From assembly GCA_038893995.1 (NCBI GenBank), contig JAWAQK010000018.1, positions 1 to 10,812 of the forward strand: 10,812 nucleotides of DNA, read 5' to 3'. Source of the DNA: Candidatus Thorarchaeota archaeon. Lineage in GTDB: Archaea; Asgardarchaeota; Thorarchaeia; Thorarchaeales; Thorarchaeaceae. The notes beneath the pieces are model-generated. The model searched no databases and was not told where the DNA came from. It worked only from the letters and a program-made list of their open reading frames with translations. Position 1 is the first letter of the stretch; each line of letters opens with the position of its first letter. Below are positions 2,280 through 10,754 of the stretch, piece by piece. The translations under genes and the position numbers were made by a program.

Positions 2280-2660
2280 TCATATCTTTCCGATGAGACT
2301 GACTGCTGCTCTCCCAAGGTCAACAACCGTCAGTTCCGGTACTGAGTCCGGGGTCGACCATGCCAAGAGCCAGGTTGTCCCATCGACAAGAAAGGTCAGG
2401 AAGTTTCCCCCATCATCTGCAGTCGAAACGTAGTACTCAGGAGTCGATGTGATTCTTCGATAGCTCACTCCATTAATCGTGACGGAGGGTGTAGCCTCCT
2501 TCGCAGCTGAGACCAGTGCTTCAGCAACTGGCACCAGATCCCAATTGGATGTCTGCCAGATGACCTCCGAGCCGCGGCAAACCGCGAAGGCCTGTATCTT
2601 AGGATTATGACCATACAGTGTTGCCCACGCTTTCTCGATCTCGGACACTCCATCGACCAT
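2280..2660 (-). CDS. Asgard-type profilin paralogue 2 (divergent, acidic)
   Basis: 126 aa. The pattern IQAFAV..EVIWQTSNWDL..SVTINGVSY..STPE..GG..AWSTP..VD.GRAA..L.GKI follows the Asgard profilin layout (Loki-type QTENW, SI.GIKY, G.G). About 40% identical to its neighbour by hand alignment. AGGAG SD upstream. Confidence 0.8.
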   Translation of the reverse strand: MVDGVSEIEKAWATLYGHNPKIQAFAVCRGSEVIWQTSNWDLVPVAEALVSAAKEATPSVTINGVSYRRITSTPEYYVSTADDGGNFLTFLVDGTTWLLAWSTPDSVPELTVVDLGRAAVSLIGKI

Positions 2661-2691
2661 CGTCTTATTCTCCTTTCTGGCAGAGCGCAGT

Positions 2692-2717
2692 GGGTGCGGA
2701 TTTGATCAACCGCACCC
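2692..2717. terminator. Intergenic stem-loop between the two profilin genes (mRNA stabiliser, attenuator or processing site)
   Basis: Perfect 8-bp GC-rich inverted repeat GGGTGCGG/CCGCACCC with a 10-nt loop, 14 nt after the profilin-1 stop. Confidence 0.55.
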
Positions 2718-2731
2718 CTCAGTACCCTTGA

Positions 2732-3112
2732 CTAGATCTTTCCCTTGAGTCGTTTGGCTGCTCTGTCCACATCAACATACACCTGATCTGGAGCAGCATT
2801 GGGACTCGCCCAAGCCACAACAAACTTGTCGTTGTCGATTCTTGCCAGAAGAAGTATTCCATTACCCGCAACACTCCGGGCCACAAGACTCTCCGGCGTG
2901 GAGCGTATAGTGCTGTACTTTACTTGGTTCTGTACTACAGACGCAGCCCTCTGAGCAACGGCCGAGCTCAGTGCAGGTGCGTCAGCAGTCAGGTCCCAGT
3001 TGTTGCTCTGCCACAGAACTCTTCCAGATGTAGTTATAACTCCGAATGCCTGAATCATTTGGTTCGAGTCATTGTAAGCCTGTGTGTATGCTTCCATTAC
3101 TGGATCTGTCAC
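2732..3112 (-). CDS. Asgard-type profilin paralogue 1 (actin-binding motif retained)
   Basis: 126 aa containing GRVLWQSNNWDL, NQVKYSTIRST (compare human profilin-1 GQKCSVIRDS) and GNGILLL, with a basic C-terminal helix RAAKRLKGKI. GTG start 6 nt after SD GGGGTGA. Confidence 0.88.
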   Translation of the reverse strand: MTDPVMEAYTQAYNDSNQMIQAFGVITTSGRVLWQSNNWDLTADAPALSSAVAQRAASVVQNQVKYSTIRSTPESLVARSVAGNGILLLARIDNDKFVVAWASPNAAPDQVYVDVDRAAKRLKGKI

Positions 3113-3169
3113 ATTTCTTCACCCCGTGATGTTGGACTCTGTGGTCTGCTATGCTCTAGCATGGCATCA

Positions 3170-3183
3170 CATTTTAAGTTAAT
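3170..3183. promoter_or_regulatory. AT-rich putative bidirectional TATA region between the divergent profilin and DUF167 genes
   Basis: ATTTTAAGTTAAT is the only AT-rich island in the 100-bp divergent spacer. It reads TTTTAAG on + and CTTAAAAT on -. Confidence 0.45.
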
Positions 3184-3212
3184 CCAGACAGCCTCCACCA
3201 TGCGATGGACCG

Positions 3213-3521
3213 ATGTCAGATACCATGCTACGACAGACGGACAAAGGTGTCCTCCTCAGAGTGCATGTGAGGTTCAATCCCAGAGAGCGTCGGCTTGTCA
3301 CGGAACTCCACGACGAAGTTGCAATAGTCAACATTCATTCGCTTCCAGAAGGTGGCAAGGCAAATGCCGAACTCGTCAAACGACTGGCGAAAATACTCGG
3401 AGTTTCGACTTCCGACGTAGTCATTGCTTCTGGTTCTAGGTCACGTGAGAAGATCATTCTGGTCTCTGGTCTCAGGACTGATGAGGTCCGCGCGTCACTT
3501 GAACGCTCCCTAGGTGAGTAG
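3213..3521 (+). CDS. DUF167 / UPF0235 (YggU-like) protein
   Basis: 102 aa with the family signature P.GGKAN.EL...LA..LGV....V.I.SG..SR.K. Confidence 0.9.
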   Translation: MSDTMLRQTDKGVLLRVHVRFNPRERRLVTELHDEVAIVNIHSLPEGGKANAELVKRLAKILGVSTSDVVIASGSRSREKIILVSGLRTDEVRASLERSLGE

Positions 3522-3562: not shown

Positions 3563-6082
3563 GTGAGGTCATCAGTGCCCGGTCGACAGATCTCCCGATT
3601 CATTTCGGCATCAAGTGCAGCTGCAGGCATGTTGGTGGTGGCCACATCGATATTGTCAGGTCGACTTGATATCACATCAGTAGTCACAATGGGCTCCTTG
3701 GTCTATGTGATACATGCATCTCTGTTCAGACCCGCACCGACCGTGAGAGAGTCTGCTATCGCACTGATGTCTGTCTTGGTGTACTCAGCTGCGCTGGCGC
3801 TGGTTGGAAACCTCACAGAGTCCATGATGCTCTTAGGAGTAGTCGTTCTCTATGTCACACTAGTGGGGCGACCTCGCCTCCTAGCAGACCTGGACCGACG
3901 ACCGACAAGGATGTTATGTGTAGGTCTGTTCTCCGCAGGTGCTGCATATGCTGTCTTTGCAATGCTGAATGGAAGGGCCTCCGATCCCACCACAATCATC
4001 GCACTGACCGTTGAGATGCTATTGGTTGTAGCCTCACTCAGGGTTCATCATCTTTCGAATAGGGCGTATCTTGCTCTCGGCCTTCTGATGGTCCTGTTTC
4101 CCGTCCTTGCATTGGCAATGGACCTTGTCACAGAGCTGGTGCTGATGGTGAGTGCAGGTGTAGCCGCCTACATGATCCTGATGAGTAATCCAAGGTTTCC
4201 ACTGACGAAGAGAGCCTTGTCAACTGGGTTGGTAGTAGGAACAGTCATGACCTTCCTGGGCATATACCTCTCACTCAAGCTTGGCATCATCTACTTCGTA
4301 GGCGCAGAGATGTTGGGGGCAATCCTACTTGGCGCACGGGGCGGCTACACGAAGGAGGAGAATACAATTGTTGTTACGATTGCCAACAGCTCCTCAATGA
4401 TATCGGTTGGAACGCTCATCACCATTCCTGCAATTGCAATATTCGATAGTCCTGTCGACCCCATCGCACCGACTCTGTTGACATATGAGTTCATCGCGTT
4501 TCTTACTGGTATGAGCGCCGTGCTCGGAATCATGCTACTCTTGCCCTTCCGGGAGCGTTTCGAGAACGATCCATGGCCTCAGGTGCGGCCACAGGCAGAG
4601 TGTATTGTGTCCATAGGTTCTGATAGAGTCGCCAAGCGTAATGTCCTGACAGGAGTCCTGCTCTCTGTGGGATTCTCTGGATCTCTGAGAACGGTCGAGC
4701 AAGTCACATCCAGGCGTATTGTGTCGTTACCGAATGCGCTTGTCGGTTCTGTCCCCGAGTGGATCGGGCTGAGCACATCTCCGCTCATTGCCGCGATTGG
4801 TTATTTTGTCGGCTGGAAGCGGGCCGTATCACTCGTGATCGGAAGTTGCATCTCACTGGGCATATGGTTGGCTCTAGAGGGTGCAGCCCCTCTGCAGTTC
4901 TCAGAACACATTCGTCGTCCAGAAATACTCTACTTGGTCCTGGGCTGCTTTGGAGCAATCGTCACGGGTGACATGGTTGCATCTAGAAAGAATGCAGTAC
5001 TCTCGCCCACGATCTTTGAAGAGTACACGAATCATAGAAACGCGTTGCTGGATGATGGCTTCCTGATAGATGCGCCCCACAATGCATCTGAGATTCGTAG
5101 AGTCATCCGTACTCGTACCGAATTGGTTTCAATCAGCGAGATCCGCAATGAGATTCGTGCCATAATAGAGAATCCTCGCGCATACCTTCGTTCCAAACAG
5201 GGCCGGTTACCCTATTGGTTGAGTTTCCTGTCCCTTGGCATCTTTACGGTGGTCGGAGTCGTGGTCTTCTCTGTGTTGAGAGCATTTCAGCCGCTAGAGA
5301 TTCACTGGCTGTTGTTCATACTAGGGGCGCCCCTTGTTCTCGTGTCTGCTTACTTCACGGCCAGAGCAATAAGTGAGACCGCAATGCTAGCGGGCTATAT
5401 CTCCGACGTAATTGCAATCCCCGCAATTGTTTTCCTTCGAGTGTCGTTTGCTGCAATGACCTCGTTCATGGCAATGGTCGGCTCTCTCCAAGACTCTGCC
5501 ATTGCCGCGTTGCTTCACATCAAGCTAGGATCGCTCACCGGAGTCAGGGCCCGGGATGTGCTCAAGGCCGTATTCATCGGCATCATGCTGGCCACCATTT
5601 CGGGTGCCCTCATGATATACGGGATCTATAGGGTATATGGCTTCGGAGGCAGTGACTTTCCCAGCCCAACAGCCCAGCTATTTGGTTTCCTCTTGACCGG
5701 TCTCCAGGGCCTGAGTGATTTCAGGTTGCCTGGCATGACAGTTCCGTTTTCGATTTCACTGGAGTTCTTCGTGTCATTTCTCTACCTGATGTCATTCGCT
5801 GTCGGAGGCTATCTGCTGGGACGGGAGTTGAATAGGCGCGGGGCGAGTGCAATCAGCCTTGCGGTAGGTTTCCTCATCCCGCCTGCCACATCTCTGGCCA
5901 TACTCTTGGGCGGTTTCCTTGAACTGAAGTCGACAAATCCCCCCTCTAGCGAGACATGCATGAGTCAGGAGGTACCGAATCGGCAACGTCTCAATCGCAT
6001 ACTCAGTGGGATAATCGCAGGGGAGGCGATAGTCACGTTTCTCTGGGTCATGGGAGGTGCACTGAGTCTGCTCCTGCTCTAA
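3563..6082 (+). CDS. OPT/YSL-family oligopeptide or metal-chelate transporter with an extra N-terminal membrane domain
   Basis: OPT motifs begin near aa 213: LTKRAL..G...G.....IYLSLKLG, EENTIVVT.A, WP....AE, SP....GYFVG, KLG.LTG, FPSPTA and LSGIIAGEA. The start may be the in-frame GTG at 3575, which follows GGTGAGG. Confidence 0.85.
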   Translation: MRSSVPGRQISRFISASSAAAGMLVVATSILSGRLDITSVVTMGSLVYVIHASLFRPAPTVRESAIALMSVLVYSAALALVGNLTESMMLLGVVVLYVTLVGRPRLLADLDRRPTRMLCVGLFSAGAAYAVFAMLNGRASDPTTIIALTVEMLLVVASLRVHHLSNRAYLALGLLMVLFPVLALAMDLVTELVLMVSAGVAAYMILMSNPRFPLTKRALSTGLVVGTVMTFLGIYLSLKLGIIYFVGAEMLGAILLGARGGYTKEENTIVVTIANSSSMISVGTLITIPAIAIFDSPVDPIAPTLLTYEFIAFLTGMSAVLGIMLLLPFRERFENDPWPQVRPQAECIVSIGSDRVAKRNVLTGVLLSVGFSGSLRTVEQVTSRRIVSLPNALVGSVPEWIGLSTSPLIAAIGYFVGWKRAVSLVIGSCISLGIWLALEGAAPLQFSEHIRRPEILYLVLGCFGAIVTGDMVASRKNAVLSPTIFEEYTNHRNALLDDGFLIDAPHNASEIRRVIRTRTELVSISEIRNEIRAIIENPRAYLRSKQGRLPYWLSFLSLGIFTVVGVVVFSVLRAFQPLEIHWLLFILGAPLVLVSAYFTARAISETAMLAGYISDVIAIPAIVFLRVSFAAMTSFMAMVGSLQDSAIAALLHIKLGSLTGVRARDVLKAVFIGIMLATISGALMIYGIYRVYGFGGSDFPSPTAQLFGFLLTGLQGLSDFRLPGMTVPFSISLEFFVSFLYLMSFAVGGYLLGRELNRRGASAISLAVGFLIPPATSLAILLGGFLELKSTNPPSSETCMSQEVPNRQRLNRILSGIIAGEAIVTFLWVMGGALSLLLL

Positions 6083-7037
6083 TGGCATATTCCGCAAGAT
6101 TCTTGACAAACTCAGAGAAGTGTACTTTTTGGAGGCTTGCCCCTGCTGCTGCTGGGTGACCTCCCCCCTGCGCCTCAGGAATGCCACTCAGTACCCGCTG
6201 TACAGCGACATTGAGATCAATATCAGAGTCACGTCTTCTCAATGACAGATCGACCTCGTTTCCGAATGATCTCCCACTGATACCGATGGTGCCTCCCGCG
6301 CAGTACGCAGCGAACTTTGCACTCTTTCCCCGGTATCCATTCAAAGGCATGTCAAGCACGTAACCGACTGGACCCAATTTCCTGACGTGTTGTTGGACAT
6401 ATCTGAACACTTCGTGTTCCACTCGTGTTGCCTTCACTGCCATCTCAACGATTTGACTCATTGAACTCGGTTGGATTCCCAGGGCAAGATGGTAGAGAGT
6501 TTCCTTGGCCCCTTTCGTGTAGTCCATCTCCTGAAGCGCCTGCACCAATATTCCCGCCTCAAAATAGATGGTACGTTTGTCCAGGTCCTCGAATCGTTTC
6601 ACGGCGAAGGGTGAGTTGTCGCAATAGTCTCCAATTGATCCATACAGCGCGAGGAGTACTGCTCCATCTGGCAGCCGGTCCTCGAACCTCCTGTAGACAA
6701 GCTCCGCCGCGCAACTACCCGTCTCATTGAAGTAGTCCACTCGTTCCGAGAGTTTCTTCCTGTGCTCATTATCGATTGGATGATGGTCCGTCCATAGTAC
6801 AGTTGTCTTGCTGGGAATCTGATTGAGCGCCTTGAGTATCTCAGAAAATGACGACCGATTGACTGCAATGTCGCTTATGGATATCAGTTCAGGTTCGTCA
6901 CGAGCCAGACGAGCCAGATCGTGCTGGATCTGGGATGGTCGTGTGAAAAACACGCTGGAACCAGGTAATGCCATGAGTGCAATTGCGCCTGATGTTATCC
7001 CATCAAGGTCTCCGTGCGTCAGTATCACTGAGTTCAT
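6048..7037 (-). CDS. DHH-family phosphoesterase with a DHHA1 domain
   Basis: Motifs H.D.DG (THGDLDG), SD, DHH (WTDHHP), GD and the C-terminal GGGHPAAAGA. GGAGG SD upstream. Starts 13 nt after the upstream stop. Confidence 0.92.
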   Translation of the reverse strand: MNSVILTHGDLDGITSGAIALMALPGSSVFFTRPSQIQHDLARLARDEPELISISDIAVNRSSFSEILKALNQIPSKTTVLWTDHHPIDNEHRKKLSERVDYFNETGSCAAELVYRRFEDRLPDGAVLLALYGSIGDYCDNSPFAVKRFEDLDKRTIYFEAGILVQALQEMDYTKGAKETLYHLALGIQPSSMSQIVEMAVKATRVEHEVFRYVQQHVRKLGPVGYVLDMPLNGYRGKSAKFAAYCAGGTIGISGRSFGNEVDLSLRRRDSDIDLNVAVQRVLSGIPEAQGGGHPAAAGASLQKVHFSEFVKNLAEYAIRAGADSVHLP

Positions 7038-7050
7038 TCTGTTTCCTCCC

Positions 7051-8406
7051 TCAAGAACGGGTCATCTCCGACAGCGCCTTATCCCACTCGTCCTCCTCGT
7101 GTCCACTCTCCGTCTTTCGTGCCTCACGTTTCATCTTCCTTCTGGCAGCCCTGGCTTCTCGTAGACGACGCGCGATCTCCCTCTTCTTCATTCTTTCGTC
7201 AGATTCAGTCTTCTTCTCCTCCGACTGGTCTCGCCCGAACACATTGCGGATCAGCATTGCGGTGAATGGGAAGACTAGAATGATTGGAATGAAGTACAAC
7301 ATGATGATCTCGGGCTGTACGAACTCTACACTCGACCTGACTCCAATCGGAGGTGTGAGCGCGCCCAACACTATTGAGGGGCTCAGTAGAATAAAGGACA
7401 GGGGTATGACTATCGCAAACCTTGCTAGTGATCCCATGACTGTCGATAGTGCAACGTATCTCTGGGACGGTGCTGATGCTTTTGCCGTCAACTCCGAAGA
7501 CGCATTTGGATCGCTGGCAATCAGCTCATCCACATAGATCTGCAACCGTCGTACGTCACTGACTGTGTCGAGTAGCTGAAATGCCATCTTGTCCTCTGTT
7601 GATGCCTTTCTCTCCATGACCTCCCTCAAGAACGAGAATACGGTTGCTCCTGCAAGTTTGCTGGAAGTAAGACCTGAGTGATCCTCTCCCCGCTCCAGTG
7701 CCTCCTGCTTTCTTGCTGCCTTACGGAGAGCGAGAAGCTGTTGTTTCAAGTACTCCTCTCGGTCTTCGATTGGTTTGCCCACTGTATGGCTGTATATCAT
7801 CTGGTAACTGACCTCCAGATAGGCGAATGAGACAAGCACCAGGATCTGGAGATCGCTCTGCAGGAACAGGAGGAAGTCTTGGGATATCGACGTGTACTGG
7901 TATATGCCTCGGAACGCAGCTACTGCGAGGATAAGCTGGACACAGACGAACGCTCCGCTCACGAACTTGTGGTCCATTCGCACGATTGACTGCAGAAATA
8001 GCATGACGGCTACCACAGCGAACATCAAGTAGAGAAAAGAGAACGCCTCGTCAATGATTATCGACGACCTGCTCAAGAGGTTCCGCAGCATTTCACCGAT
8101 CATCGTGGAATCGGGCACAACAGCTGAACCCGTGGAAGGCCAGAGATACCACATTTTCGCGAGAAACACACCGTAGATTCCTGTGAACAGACTCTGGGCG
8201 CCTGGCATGATCGACTGTGTTACTATCGCAATGATGTTCAGCGACACGAACAGTATCGCGAGCGACAGCAATCTGAATATTGACACCACAAAATCATAGG
8301 CAGCGTTCCAGTTCCAGTATCCTTGTAGGAGTAAGTACACTCGCCAGCTCATGTAGGCGAATAGCACTGTGGAGAGGGCACGGAGAATCCATGTGACAAG
8401 CCTCAT
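7051..8406 (-). CDS. Hypothetical polytopic membrane protein with a cytoplasmic helical loop and a charged C-terminal tail
   Basis: 451 aa: about 6 N-terminal TM segments, a charged helical region (aa ~210-315), 2 further TMs, a basic helix and an acidic EEDEWD tail. ATGA overlap with the DUF58 stop at 8403-8406. Confidence 0.8.
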   Translation of the reverse strand: MRLVTWILRALSTVLFAYMSWRVYLLLQGYWNWNAAYDFVVSIFRLLSLAILFVSLNIIAIVTQSIMPGAQSLFTGIYGVFLAKMWYLWPSTGSAVVPDSTMIGEMLRNLLSRSSIIIDEAFSFLYLMFAVVAVMLFLQSIVRMDHKFVSGAFVCVQLILAVAAFRGIYQYTSISQDFLLFLQSDLQILVLVSFAYLEVSYQMIYSHTVGKPIEDREEYLKQQLLALRKAARKQEALERGEDHSGLTSSKLAGATVFSFLREVMERKASTEDKMAFQLLDTVSDVRRLQIYVDELIASDPNASSELTAKASAPSQRYVALSTVMGSLARFAIVIPLSFILLSPSIVLGALTPPIGVRSSVEFVQPEIIMLYFIPIILVFPFTAMLIRNVFGRDQSEEKKTESDERMKKREIARRLREARAARRKMKREARKTESGHEEDEWDKALSEMTRS

Positions 8407-9725
8407 GTGAGTGCGACCCCCCTTTGTTTTGCCAGGTGATACTGTCGAATGATAGTCGGCAGGAAGTCCTCTGGCCCAACATTCACAACATCTATCTCAA
8501 AACGCGACAGTGCCTTTGCTATCTTGTTTCTGCGTTCCCAGAGCTCCTCCGAAACTGCCTCTGCGATTGCTCTCTCAATTGGGCCAAACTGTCCCATTGG
8601 AGCCTCGAACCAGGGTCCGAACGGGCTGATGACAAGAGCTCTATGCCCACTTGCTATGACCCTCTTCATGGCGCCCAAGAGGGGGGCGGGACTCTCCTCG
8701 AGGTCTGTCAGAAATATGAGCAACGTTCGCTTTTTCAATCGCTGAATGACCGTCGTTACTGCATCCTCGTAGTTGCTCCAGCCGCCTGGTTCTGCCATTG
8801 CTAGAGCATCAAGAACCTTGTAGAGTTGATTGGGGCTGACACCAGGTTGAACTAACGAGTGGACAGTGTTGGAGAACACGCAGACTCCTACTAGATCTTG
8901 TCGCTCAAGACCCATGTATGTGAGTAGGACTGCAGCTCTAATTGCGTATTCCAGCTTTGTATTCTCAGGATAACCATTCCCCATGCTCCCAGAAGCATCC
9001 ACCATACACAATATCTGGATGTTCTTTTCCATCTCGTACTGTTTTACGACAAGCTCCGTCTGCTTGGCACTACTCTTCCAGCAGATCAGTCTGAATGGAT
9101 CCCCAGGCACGTATCCTCGGAAACCCGCAAAGTCAGTCCCCATGCCCACAACCTTTGTGCGATGTGTTCCAAACATTAGTCCCAACTGCCTCTGCTTTCC
9201 GAGCGTTTCTAGTCTGCGAACATCCTTCCATGTGGGATACACCAGTATCTCTGTCCTGCTCTTCAGAATCCTTTTGTAGTAGTGTAGTCCGAGACGATCG
9301 CGGATAATGACCTCCGTTGGGCCGATGTGGTATCGGCCTCGCATTCTTGTCTGCAGTACGTATGAGTACGTTATGCTTGTTCCCGCCTCGATCCTTGTGG
9401 CGATGAAGTTGCTTCCTATCGCAAGCACCCACGTTTCCGGATACTGGTCGACTATCTCGATGAAGTCGAAGGCTCGTCTCGATCTGTTCCGTATCATGAC
9501 ACGCACACGAAGGAAATCGCCCGAGAATATCCGCGCCTTATCGATCTTGCGATCCACTTCGATATCCGATATGTTCGCCGTGATGGCAAACGTTGGAAGG
9601 GTGACGACAAGTCCAACTAGGAGGTATGCTCCCAGAGTAAGCAGATAGTAGTTGTAGTAGGCAAATCCACTGGTCATCAGGAGAATGCCTGAGAATAACA
9701 CTACAAAGCCTCTAATGGTTATCAG
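8403..9725 (-). CDS. DUF58 / von Willebrand A domain protein, MoxR partner (likely CTG start at 9725; first canonical start is GTG 9701)
   Basis: DUF58 signature F.GFR.Y.PGD..R.I.WK.SAK, MIDAS motif DASGS and later TD. Two N-terminal TMs followed by a beta-rich Ig-like segment. Confidence 0.9.
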   Translation of the reverse strand: MITIRGFVVLFSGILLMTSGFAYYNYYLLTLGAYLLVGLVVTLPTFAITANISDIEVDRKIDKARIFSGDFLRVRVMIRNRSRRAFDFIEIVDQYPETWVLAIGSNFIATRIEAGTSITYSYVLQTRMRGRYHIGPTEVIIRDRLGLHYYKRILKSRTEILVYPTWKDVRRLETLGKQRQLGLMFGTHRTKVVGMGTDFAGFRGYVPGDPFRLICWKSSAKQTELVVKQYEMEKNIQILCMVDASGSMGNGYPENTKLEYAIRAAVLLTYMGLERQDLVGVCVFSNTVHSLVQPGVSPNQLYKVLDALAMAEPGGWSNYEDAVTTVIQRLKKRTLLIFLTDLEESPAPLLGAMKRVIASGHRALVISPFGPWFEAPMGQFGPIERAIAEAVSEELWERRNKIAKALSRFEIDVVNVGPEDFLPTIIRQYHLAKQRGVALT

Positions 9726-9764
9726 AGCAGTTGCCTCCGAGTCTGATTCACTTCACTTTCGACA

Positions 9765-10754
9765 CTATACCGGACAGTCCACTTCGCCGAGTATCTTTGA
9801 TATCATTCGCTCGACAGTCATCCCTTCGAGCTCGGCTTCTGGTTTTAGCAAGAGTCTGTGATTCAGGGTCTGCACAGTCAGCCTTCGGACATCCTCCGGA
9901 GTCACATAGTCTCGACCACACATTGCTGCATGTGTTTTCGAGGCGTTCATCAACACTAGGGACGCACGAGGAGACCCTCCCAACAGAATCTGCGGATCAT
10001 TCCGTGTTCTCACCACTATGTCCCTGATGTAGTTGATGATGTCGTTATCGAGGTAGACTGTCTTGCAGGCATTCTGCATCCCCAGAATCACTTCGGGGCT
10101 CGCAAGAACACGAAGATCGTGTGCCTCACCAACATGTTTCCTGCGTATCACCTCGGCCTCCTCGTCCCCAGTCGGATATCCTAGGATCAACCTGAACATG
10201 AACCGATCGAGTTGAGCCTCCGGCAGTGGATAGGTCCCCTCCTGCTCAATGGGGTTCTGCGTGGCTATTATCAAGAACGGCTCAGGGAGTTTTCGAGTGA
10301 CTCCCTCAATTGAAACCTGACGTTCCTCCATCACCTCTAGCAGTGCACTCTGTGATTTTGGAGGGCATCGGTTGATCTCGTCAGCCAGCACAAGATTGGC
10401 AAACACAGGCCCCTTGCGGAACCAGAACTCACCAGTCTTCTGGTTAAAGATGTTTCCGCCAAGTATATCGCCGGGCAGCGTGTCGACTGTCAACTGGATC
10501 CTCTTGAAGGAACAGCCCAGAATGGCCGCAAAGGTTCTAGCCATGTACGTCTTTGCCAGTCCAGGCACTCCCTCGAGGACCACATGGCCGTTAGACAGGA
10601 ACGCGATGAGAACATCTCTCAGTACATCGGTCTTGCCTACGATTACCCGTTGGCACTCACGAATGATTTCATCTGTTATCTCGTGAACCTCGTCGATACT
10701 CATCATCGGAGTCGTTCCGTTTGTGGTTCGGGTCTCATGGTCTTCTTGTGTCAT
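9765..10754 (-). CDS. moxR: MoxR-family AAA+ ATPase (MoxR-proper type)
   Basis: Walker A GVPGLAKT, Walker B LVLADEINR, ATQNPIEQEGTYPLPEAQLDRF and GGSPRA. GGTGA SD upstream of ATG 10754. Confidence 0.96.
   Translation of the reverse strand: MTQEDHETRTTNGTTPMMSIDEVHEITDEIIRECQRVIVGKTDVLRDVLIAFLSNGHVVLEGVPGLAKTYMARTFAAILGCSFKRIQLTVDTLPGDILGGNIFNQKTGEFWFRKGPVFANLVLADEINRCPPKSQSALLEVMEERQVSIEGVTRKLPEPFLIIATQNPIEQEGTYPLPEAQLDRFMFRLILGYPTGDEEAEVIRRKHVGEAHDLRVLASPEVILGMQNACKTVYLDNDIINYIRDIVVRTRNDPQILLGGSPRASLVLMNASKTHAAMCGRDYVTPEDVRRLTVQTLNHRLLLKPEAELEGMTVERMISKILGEVDCPV

Follow-up and report, generated by a model that had tools for sequence, protein, structure and literature searches.

The window considered here is an entire contig of 10.8 kb, which belongs to a genome of 2.33 Mb in 82 contigs that is 91% complete. 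On its minus strand lie two co-oriented genes, profilin A upstream and profilin B downstream, separated by a gap of 71 bp. The features of this locus and its neighbours in the window are as follows.

3171..3184, minus strand: BRE/TATA-like box GATTAACTTAAAAT, about 60-70 nt before the profilin A start; putative promoter element
3119..3125, minus strand: Shine-Dalgarno sequence GGGGTGA of profilin A, 6 nt before the GTG, as read off the sequence
2732..3112, minus strand: profilin A (P0002), 126 aa, GTG start, TAG stop; orthologue of thorProfilin, clade A
2661..2731, minus strand: spacer between the two cistrons, 71 nt, without a TATA-like element
2692..2717, minus strand: stem-loop GGGTGCGG-N10-CCGCACCC, just 3' of the profilin A stop
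2669..2675, minus strand: Shine-Dalgarno sequence AAGGAGA of profilin B, with the GGAG core 9 nt before the ATG
2280..2660, minus strand: profilin B (P0001), 126 aa, ATG start; fast-evolving paralogue, "hypothetical protein" in public records
3213..3521, plus strand: DUF167/YggU-family gene, divergent neighbour (Pfam PF02594, E 5e-17); synteny marker of the locus
9765-10754, minus strand: MoxR-type AAA ATPase
8403-9701, minus strand: DUF58/vWA protein
7051-8406, minus strand: 451-aa protein without a Pfam hit
6048-7037, minus strand: DHH/DHHA1 phosphoesterase

The last four genes form a co-oriented minus-strand cluster of their own (window 6048-10754).

A first-pass annotation, made from the sequence alone, had described two co-oriented 126-aa ORFs, 71 bp apart and each with its own Shine-Dalgarno sequence, and a renewed reading of the sequence bears this out. 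By BLASTP, A and B are identical at 49/122 positions (40%) with an E value of 1e-24, which places their likeness far beyond chance. The earlier hand count of about 51 of 126 residues comes close to this figure, and the shared motifs listed with it (IQAF, WQ..NWDL, STPE, AW..P, and VD..RAA..L.GKI) can each be found in both proteins. The GTG start of profilin A is supported by its orthologues, in most of which the aligned codon is ATG.

Both genes encode profilin-fold proteins. Profilin A matches the Thorarchaeota profilin 7PBH with an E value of 3e-56 (93/125 identical residues by our own count, ~74%), as well as the profilins of Odin (5ZZA, 5e-10), Loki (5ZZB, 9e-6, and also 5YED), and Heimdall (6YRR, 5e-5). 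Profilin B matches 7PBH with E 8e-19 and Odin 5ZZA with E 7e-4, and its nearest named relatives are "hypothetical protein" records from Candidatus Thorarchaeota that have no Pfam domain. The Thorarchaeota origin that had been proposed for this DNA is also supported by how the nearest database proteins are named and by the match to 7PBH. Against the Pfam Profilin model PF00235, A scores 19.2 bits (gathering threshold 25 bits) and B gives no hit. This model seems to under-detect Asgard profilins, since it reaches only 16.6 bits on a Loki-type profilin and returned no match in a search of the whole genome. A third profilin was not found in this genome, 91% complete, when it was searched with both proteins, the Pfam model, and a 45-sequence profile; the profile search adds two weak hits, which are Roadblock/LC7 genes and not profilins.

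For profilin B, an AlphaFold2 model was built on a 45-sequence alignment and reached a pLDDT of 96.4 and a pTM of 0.88. Its elements (H2-18, E22-29, E32-36, H43-55, five more strands, and H108-122) make up the profilin fold, that is, an N-terminal helix, a seven-strand antiparallel sheet with a short helix, and a C-terminal helix. A Foldseek search of the PDB with this model returned, in order, the Odin, Loki-2, Thor, Loki-1, and Heimdall profilins, followed by those of yeast and Acanthamoeba (TM 0.62-0.89, rmsd 1.4-2.2 Å for these top matches; TM 0.8-0.9 for Odin, Loki, and Thor), and Roadblock and MglB chains appear at rank 10 or lower with rmsd 3.8-7.0 Å. The same fold is predicted for A from its ~74% identity to 7PBH. 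The profilin identity put forward by the first-pass annotation therefore holds for A and B by sequence, and for B also by fold. That annotation had suggested the AlphaFold and Foldseek comparison and had named Roadblock and longin folds as the competing identity; the best matches of B turned out to be profilins, with Roadblock clearly worse, and we reject a Roadblock/longin identity on the sequence matches to solved profilins together with the Foldseek ranking.

Profilin A is the orthologue, within the same clade, of a protein that has been studied experimentally. This protein, thorProfilin (Thorarchaeota TEKIR_14, TFG12995.1, NMR structure 7PBH), was described by Survery et al. 2021 (PMC8410842) and by Inturi et al. 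(bioRxiv 10.1101/2021.08.06.455371). It slowed the elongation of rabbit actin at 100 µM and bound polyproline weakly, with a Kd of 250-500 µM (PMC8410842), and it co-localised with actin in HeLa cells (bioRxiv 10.1101/2021.08.06.455371). The poly-proline positions of thorProfilin (V24, Y28, T29, W53, K139, L141, and I145) are all identical in A, where they correspond, in order, to V5, Y9, T10, W34, K120, L122, and I126. The two differ at the N-terminus, where thorProfilin has a disordered extension of 20 residues that A lacks; such an extension is impossible here, because a TGA stands three codons upstream of the start (window 3113-3121, minus strand). In about half of 24 A orthologues (L004-L027) a stop likewise lies one to three codons upstream, and the common start of these proteins is M-(S/T/A)-D-P-V-M. 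Probably the start was mis-called in the one record that shows the extension.

The adjacent B gene goes unmentioned in the thorProfilin literature that we searched, and we found no description in the literature of B or of the Thor tandem profilin pair. The nearest statements are general ones, on duplications in Asgard profilins and on tandem duplications in Asgard genomes. It should be remembered that several Asgard lineages are already known to carry more than one profilin, and that A has already been characterised.

How widespread is the pair? Loci were sampled from 24 family genomes, which represent 15 other genera, and with this one they number 25. A lies next to B, in the same orientation and ahead of it, in 24/24 of the sampled family genomes and, with this one, in 25/25 loci. 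When this genome is counted, 78 of 86 family genomes have exactly two profilin matches; five have none (completeness 52-85%), two have a single match, which in one of them lies at a contig end, and one has four. Every listed pair lies on a single contig and strand with the sole exception of G068, whose A and B matches are split over contigs C218 and C34. Genome G080 carries two complete pairs (contigs C177 and C153), which may reflect either a mixed bin or a true second copy. The pair is found across the family in at least 16 genera, and the synteny survey across Thorarchaeia that the first-pass annotation had called for thus finds it in fixed order in nearly all family genomes.

In the rest of the phylum, most families have one profilin. 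One Loki-type family has two to five, and these are dispersed over different contigs, whereas the Thor pair is a fixed tandem. Separately, in the Loki-type family f9 there are profilins of ~202-206 aa (L031, L076, and L084) that consist of an N-terminal profilin domain and an extension of ~75 residues, and these form a well-supported clade of their own.

The DUF167/YggU gene lies divergently upstream of profilin A in 21/24 family loci, and it also adjoins the stand-alone profilin in the only genome of the sister family. On the strength of this common neighbour, we regard the stand-alone profilin as the positional counterpart of the pair. As a side observation, genome G025 of the sister family contains two ORFs of 447 and 431 aa (L034:490-1830, plus strand, and L035:1456-2748, minus strand) that end in profilin-like domains, with E values to A of 4e-8 and 5e-5, respectively. 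The L034 ORF also shows a sub-threshold MIT domain (26.4 vs 30 bits) just before its profilin-like domain, and could be a profilin fused to an ESCRT-related module.

A maximum-likelihood tree of 77 sequences recovered clade A (support 100/99), clade B (100/98), and the two as sisters (100/98). In the best tree, the remaining Asgard profilins, including the stand-alone profilin of the sister family, fall outside A+B. The pair therefore goes back to a single tandem duplication that took place at or before the base of the family. It may be older than the family, since the AU test did not reject a grouping of the sister-family profilin with A (lnL difference 16.1, p 0.18). The old, retained tandem duplication that had been proposed on first reading is thus upheld by a pair that is family-wide, spans at least 16 genera, and falls into two sister clades, and the suggested phylogeny with Asgard profilins dates it as at least as old as the family.

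The expression signals are arranged in a similar manner throughout the family. Upstream of A, a T/A-rich box following GA(A)TT was present in 24/24 family loci with upstream sequence, at about -40 to -70 and mostly at -60 to -70, and most orthologous loci have ACGGGGTGA or a one- to two-base variant of it as the Shine-Dalgarno sequence at -14 to -7. The A-B spacers of the family loci measure 29-184 nt. A TATA-like hexamer of any kind occurs in only one spacer of 25, where it stands 11 nt before the start and is too close to serve, and a Shine-Dalgarno-like motif is found 11-18 nt before the B start in 22/25 loci. As would be expected of a bicistronic operon, the genes share a strand, a short spacer, and a fixed order, with a promoter signal before A only and a Shine-Dalgarno sequence before B. 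It is likely that A and B are co-transcribed as one bicistronic mRNA, given that the box lies upstream of A only and that the spacers are free of usable TATA-like elements. For the bicistronic unit proposed in the first-pass annotation the support is indirect, and consists of the promoter-like boxes upstream of A alone and the Shine-Dalgarno motifs before B.

The spacer of this window folds with an MFE of -23.4 (z -1.8), and hairpins that are GC-rich and unrelated in sequence occur in the spacers of most family loci. The statistic for these hairpins gives a Wilcoxon p of about 0.007 over loci that are not independent. With a mean z of -0.82 over 25 loci and only 4/25 below -2, the hairpin was set aside as a conserved element.

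Both genes are under purifying selection, at different strengths. Mean pairwise identity across orthologues is 72.7% for A vs 42.3% for B, and dN(B)/dN(A) ranged from 1.5 to 7.4 in eleven pairs of closely related genomes. In comparisons with unsaturated dS, dN/dS came to 0.03-0.09 in A and 0.07-0.11 in B. These values, and a profilin B that is intact in 25/25 loci, tell us that B is selected, but more loosely than A. Its extra divergence is spread over most structural elements (ratios 1.3-5.7) and is not limited to the actin face.

We then asked of each copy which ancestral residues it retains. Of 46 alignment columns with an outgroup conservation of 60% or more, 10 are preserved in both copies, 12 only in A, and 6 only in B. 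Those kept by A alone are G30, S58, K65, S67, T68, L76, N80, V81, G83, A90, Y112, and A118; K65, S67, and T68 belong to the VKYS strand, L76, N80, V81, and G83 to the next hairpin, and Y112 stands at the start of the C-terminal helix. A has therefore retained the pan-Asgard residues of strands beta4-beta6 and of the beginning of the C-terminal helix. In profilin-actin complexes, these strands and the first half of this helix form the actin face, which was mapped here through secondary-structure elements and through alignment to residue equivalences in the literature rather than from coordinates.

At the actin/PIP2 face, K65, G83, and Y112 are present in 100% of 24 A orthologues, S67 in 96%, and N80 in 62%. 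In 25 B orthologues, the outgroup residue is found at the lysine position in 20%, the serine in 20%, the asparagine in 0%, the glycine in 12%, and the tyrosine in 0%. Thus A has the VKYS strand motif, the N-x-x-G-x-G loop, and the tyrosine at the start of the C-terminal helix, and B does not have this set. Four of these residues (K65, S67, G83, and Y112) reach a conservation of 86% or more in other Asgard profilins; they are fixed in A (S67 at 96%) and lost in B. K65 of A aligns with the lysine of the Odin chain's only GVKYS motif, which is residue 60 by our own count of the chain; human K69 corresponds to Odin K58, the predicted PIP2 lysine (PMC8410842), and we took the difference of two residues to be a matter of chain numbering. 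To judge from the sequences, these losses lower the case for B binding actin in the manner of a profilin, and leave its membership in the fold unaffected.

The near-invariant residues of B lie elsewhere; most of them fall within the N-terminal helix, in strand beta2, or where the C-terminal helix begins (I8, W12, L15, N19, P20, W35, Q36, T37, N39, W40, V43, P108, L110, D114, and A119). In eukaryotic profilins, this side binds poly-proline. At the poly-proline positions given for thorProfilin, B has hydrophobic or aromatic residues (I8, W12, W35, L122, and I126). The two copies also differ in charge: B is the more acidic one in 22/24 genomes, where A is more positive by a mean of 4.5 charges (here +1 for A and -6 for B), and the difference is located in beta4, beta5, beta7, and the C-terminal helix; the ranges of A and B do overlap between genera.

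The Odin and Loki profilins (5ZZA, 5ZZB, and 5YED/5YEE), reportedly described by Akil and Robinson in 2018, have the same fold as the B model (TM 0.84-0.89, rmsd 1.4-1.8 Å) and are only ~22% identical to B. They share with A the VKYS strand motif, of which B lacks the conserved lysine and serine.

As for the partner, this genome has one actin (G000:C33:15551-16654), which is adjoined by a convergent two-domain gelsolin (the two genes together occupy G000:C33:13154-16654), and a one-domain gelsolin is found on contig C10. Exactly one Pfam-actin match was obtained in 26/31 family genomes. The two profilins thus usually face a single actin; the idea that each profilin serves an actin of its own is unlikely, given the one match here and in 26/31 relatives.

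A separate observation concerns the actin gene itself. In 6/31 family genomes an insert of 30 nt, which brings in an in-frame stop, sits in the single actin gene 20-21 codons ahead of its end; examples are loci L089-L092 (G013:C24, G019:C3, G008:C13, and G022:C90). The insert folds into a bulge-helix-bulge-like motif with compensatory changes, and cutting it in both bulges restores QKMW exactly as in intron-less actins. The actin of the present genome is without it.

Taken together, we read the locus as a conserved two-gene Thorarchaeota profilin unit comprising a canonical copy, A, and a specialised copy, B, and we give this reading a probability of about 0.72. In such a unit, one archaeal promoter upstream of A would give rise to a bicistronic mRNA, from which B would be translated by means of its own Shine-Dalgarno sequence. 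A would be the canonical profilin, with actin monomers and acidic lipids as its ligands, as suggested by its ~74% identical orthologue, which slowed the elongation of rabbit actin and showed weak binding to polyproline. B would be a specialised copy whose binding of actin and lipids has been weakened or changed, and it would either act through its helix face on another ligand or tune the same single actin differently. For B taken by itself, we lean, at somewhat better than even odds, towards a specialised sister copy with a remodelled actin/lipid face. The isoform-level actin regulation that was proposed at the outset stays an inference.

Because the conserved residues of the actin/lipid face are lost, B may not bind actin at all. 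It could instead be a profilin-fold adaptor that is no actin-monomer binder and that has a new partner at its conserved N/C-helix face, with a proline-rich or membrane protein, gelsolin, or profilin A as candidates. We put this forward tentatively, and at odds of well under one half. If true, the locus would hold a two-component profilin module acting on a single actin, and would represent an archaeal neofunctionalisation of a eukaryotic signature protein.

It is unlikely that B is instead a second ordinary actin-binding isoform of broadly the same activity, retained for the sake of dosage or for use under other expression conditions. In favour of such an isoform are the completely preserved fold of B (pLDDT 96), the hydrophobic or aromatic character of its poly-proline-face positions, and the two to five profilins of Loki-type genomes; however, the two copies evolve at strongly asymmetric rates, K65, S67, G83, and Y112, conserved in A and in other Asgard profilins, are gone from B, and the putative single promoter speaks against separate regulation. 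Eukaryotic profilin isoforms, such as human PFN1/PFN2 and Acanthamoeba profilin I/II, offer a comparison, being likewise paralogues within one cell, with a presumed division of labour over actin, lipids, and proline-rich ligands; eukaryotic profilins match B structurally (TM 0.6-0.76). To our knowledge, they arose independently, are separately transcribed, and all keep actin binding. The Thor pair, unlike them, appears to share one promoter, and its B copy has lost conserved actin-face residues.

Another proposal makes A and B partners in a heterodimer, obligate or regulatory, in which the acidic B would mask or tune the actin/lipid binding of the basic face of A. In prokaryotes, neighbouring paralogues that are co-transcribed often assemble into hetero-oligomers; dimers are also formed by the related Roadblock fold, and the PDB contains a profilin dimer (7KYW). 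The charges are also suggestive, since A is more basic than B in 22/24 genomes, in the same elements in which B has lost basic residues. Profilins, however, are normally monomers, and the A-type orthologue was soluble on its own, could be solved by NMR in solution, and affected actin in the absence of B, so we consider a heterodimer improbable.

Lastly, that B is a functionless, decaying duplicate, or that both ORFs are of the Roadblock/longin type, can draw on the missing Pfam hit and "hypothetical" annotation of B and on the weak contact of the profilin profile with two Roadblock genes elsewhere in the genome, but it is excluded by a B that is intact in 25/25 loci with dN/dS of about 0.1, by E values of 8e-19 and 3e-56 to solved profilins, and by a Foldseek list in which profilins come first.

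The two-profilin unit extends a known family. Asgard profilins serve as evidence that regulated actin dynamics are older than eukaryotes, and the work on Thorarchaeota has so far dealt with the A-type protein only. The pair described here offers a clean natural example of two copies of a eukaryotic signature protein that have diverged asymmetrically after duplication within a prokaryote. Relative to what published work has tested, the Thor actin toolkit gains one profilin, and comprises one actin, two profilins, and one- and two-domain gelsolins; with a second profilin that is universally retained, apparently co-expressed, and altered at its actin/lipid face, the cellular system may differ from the in vitro results obtained with A alone.
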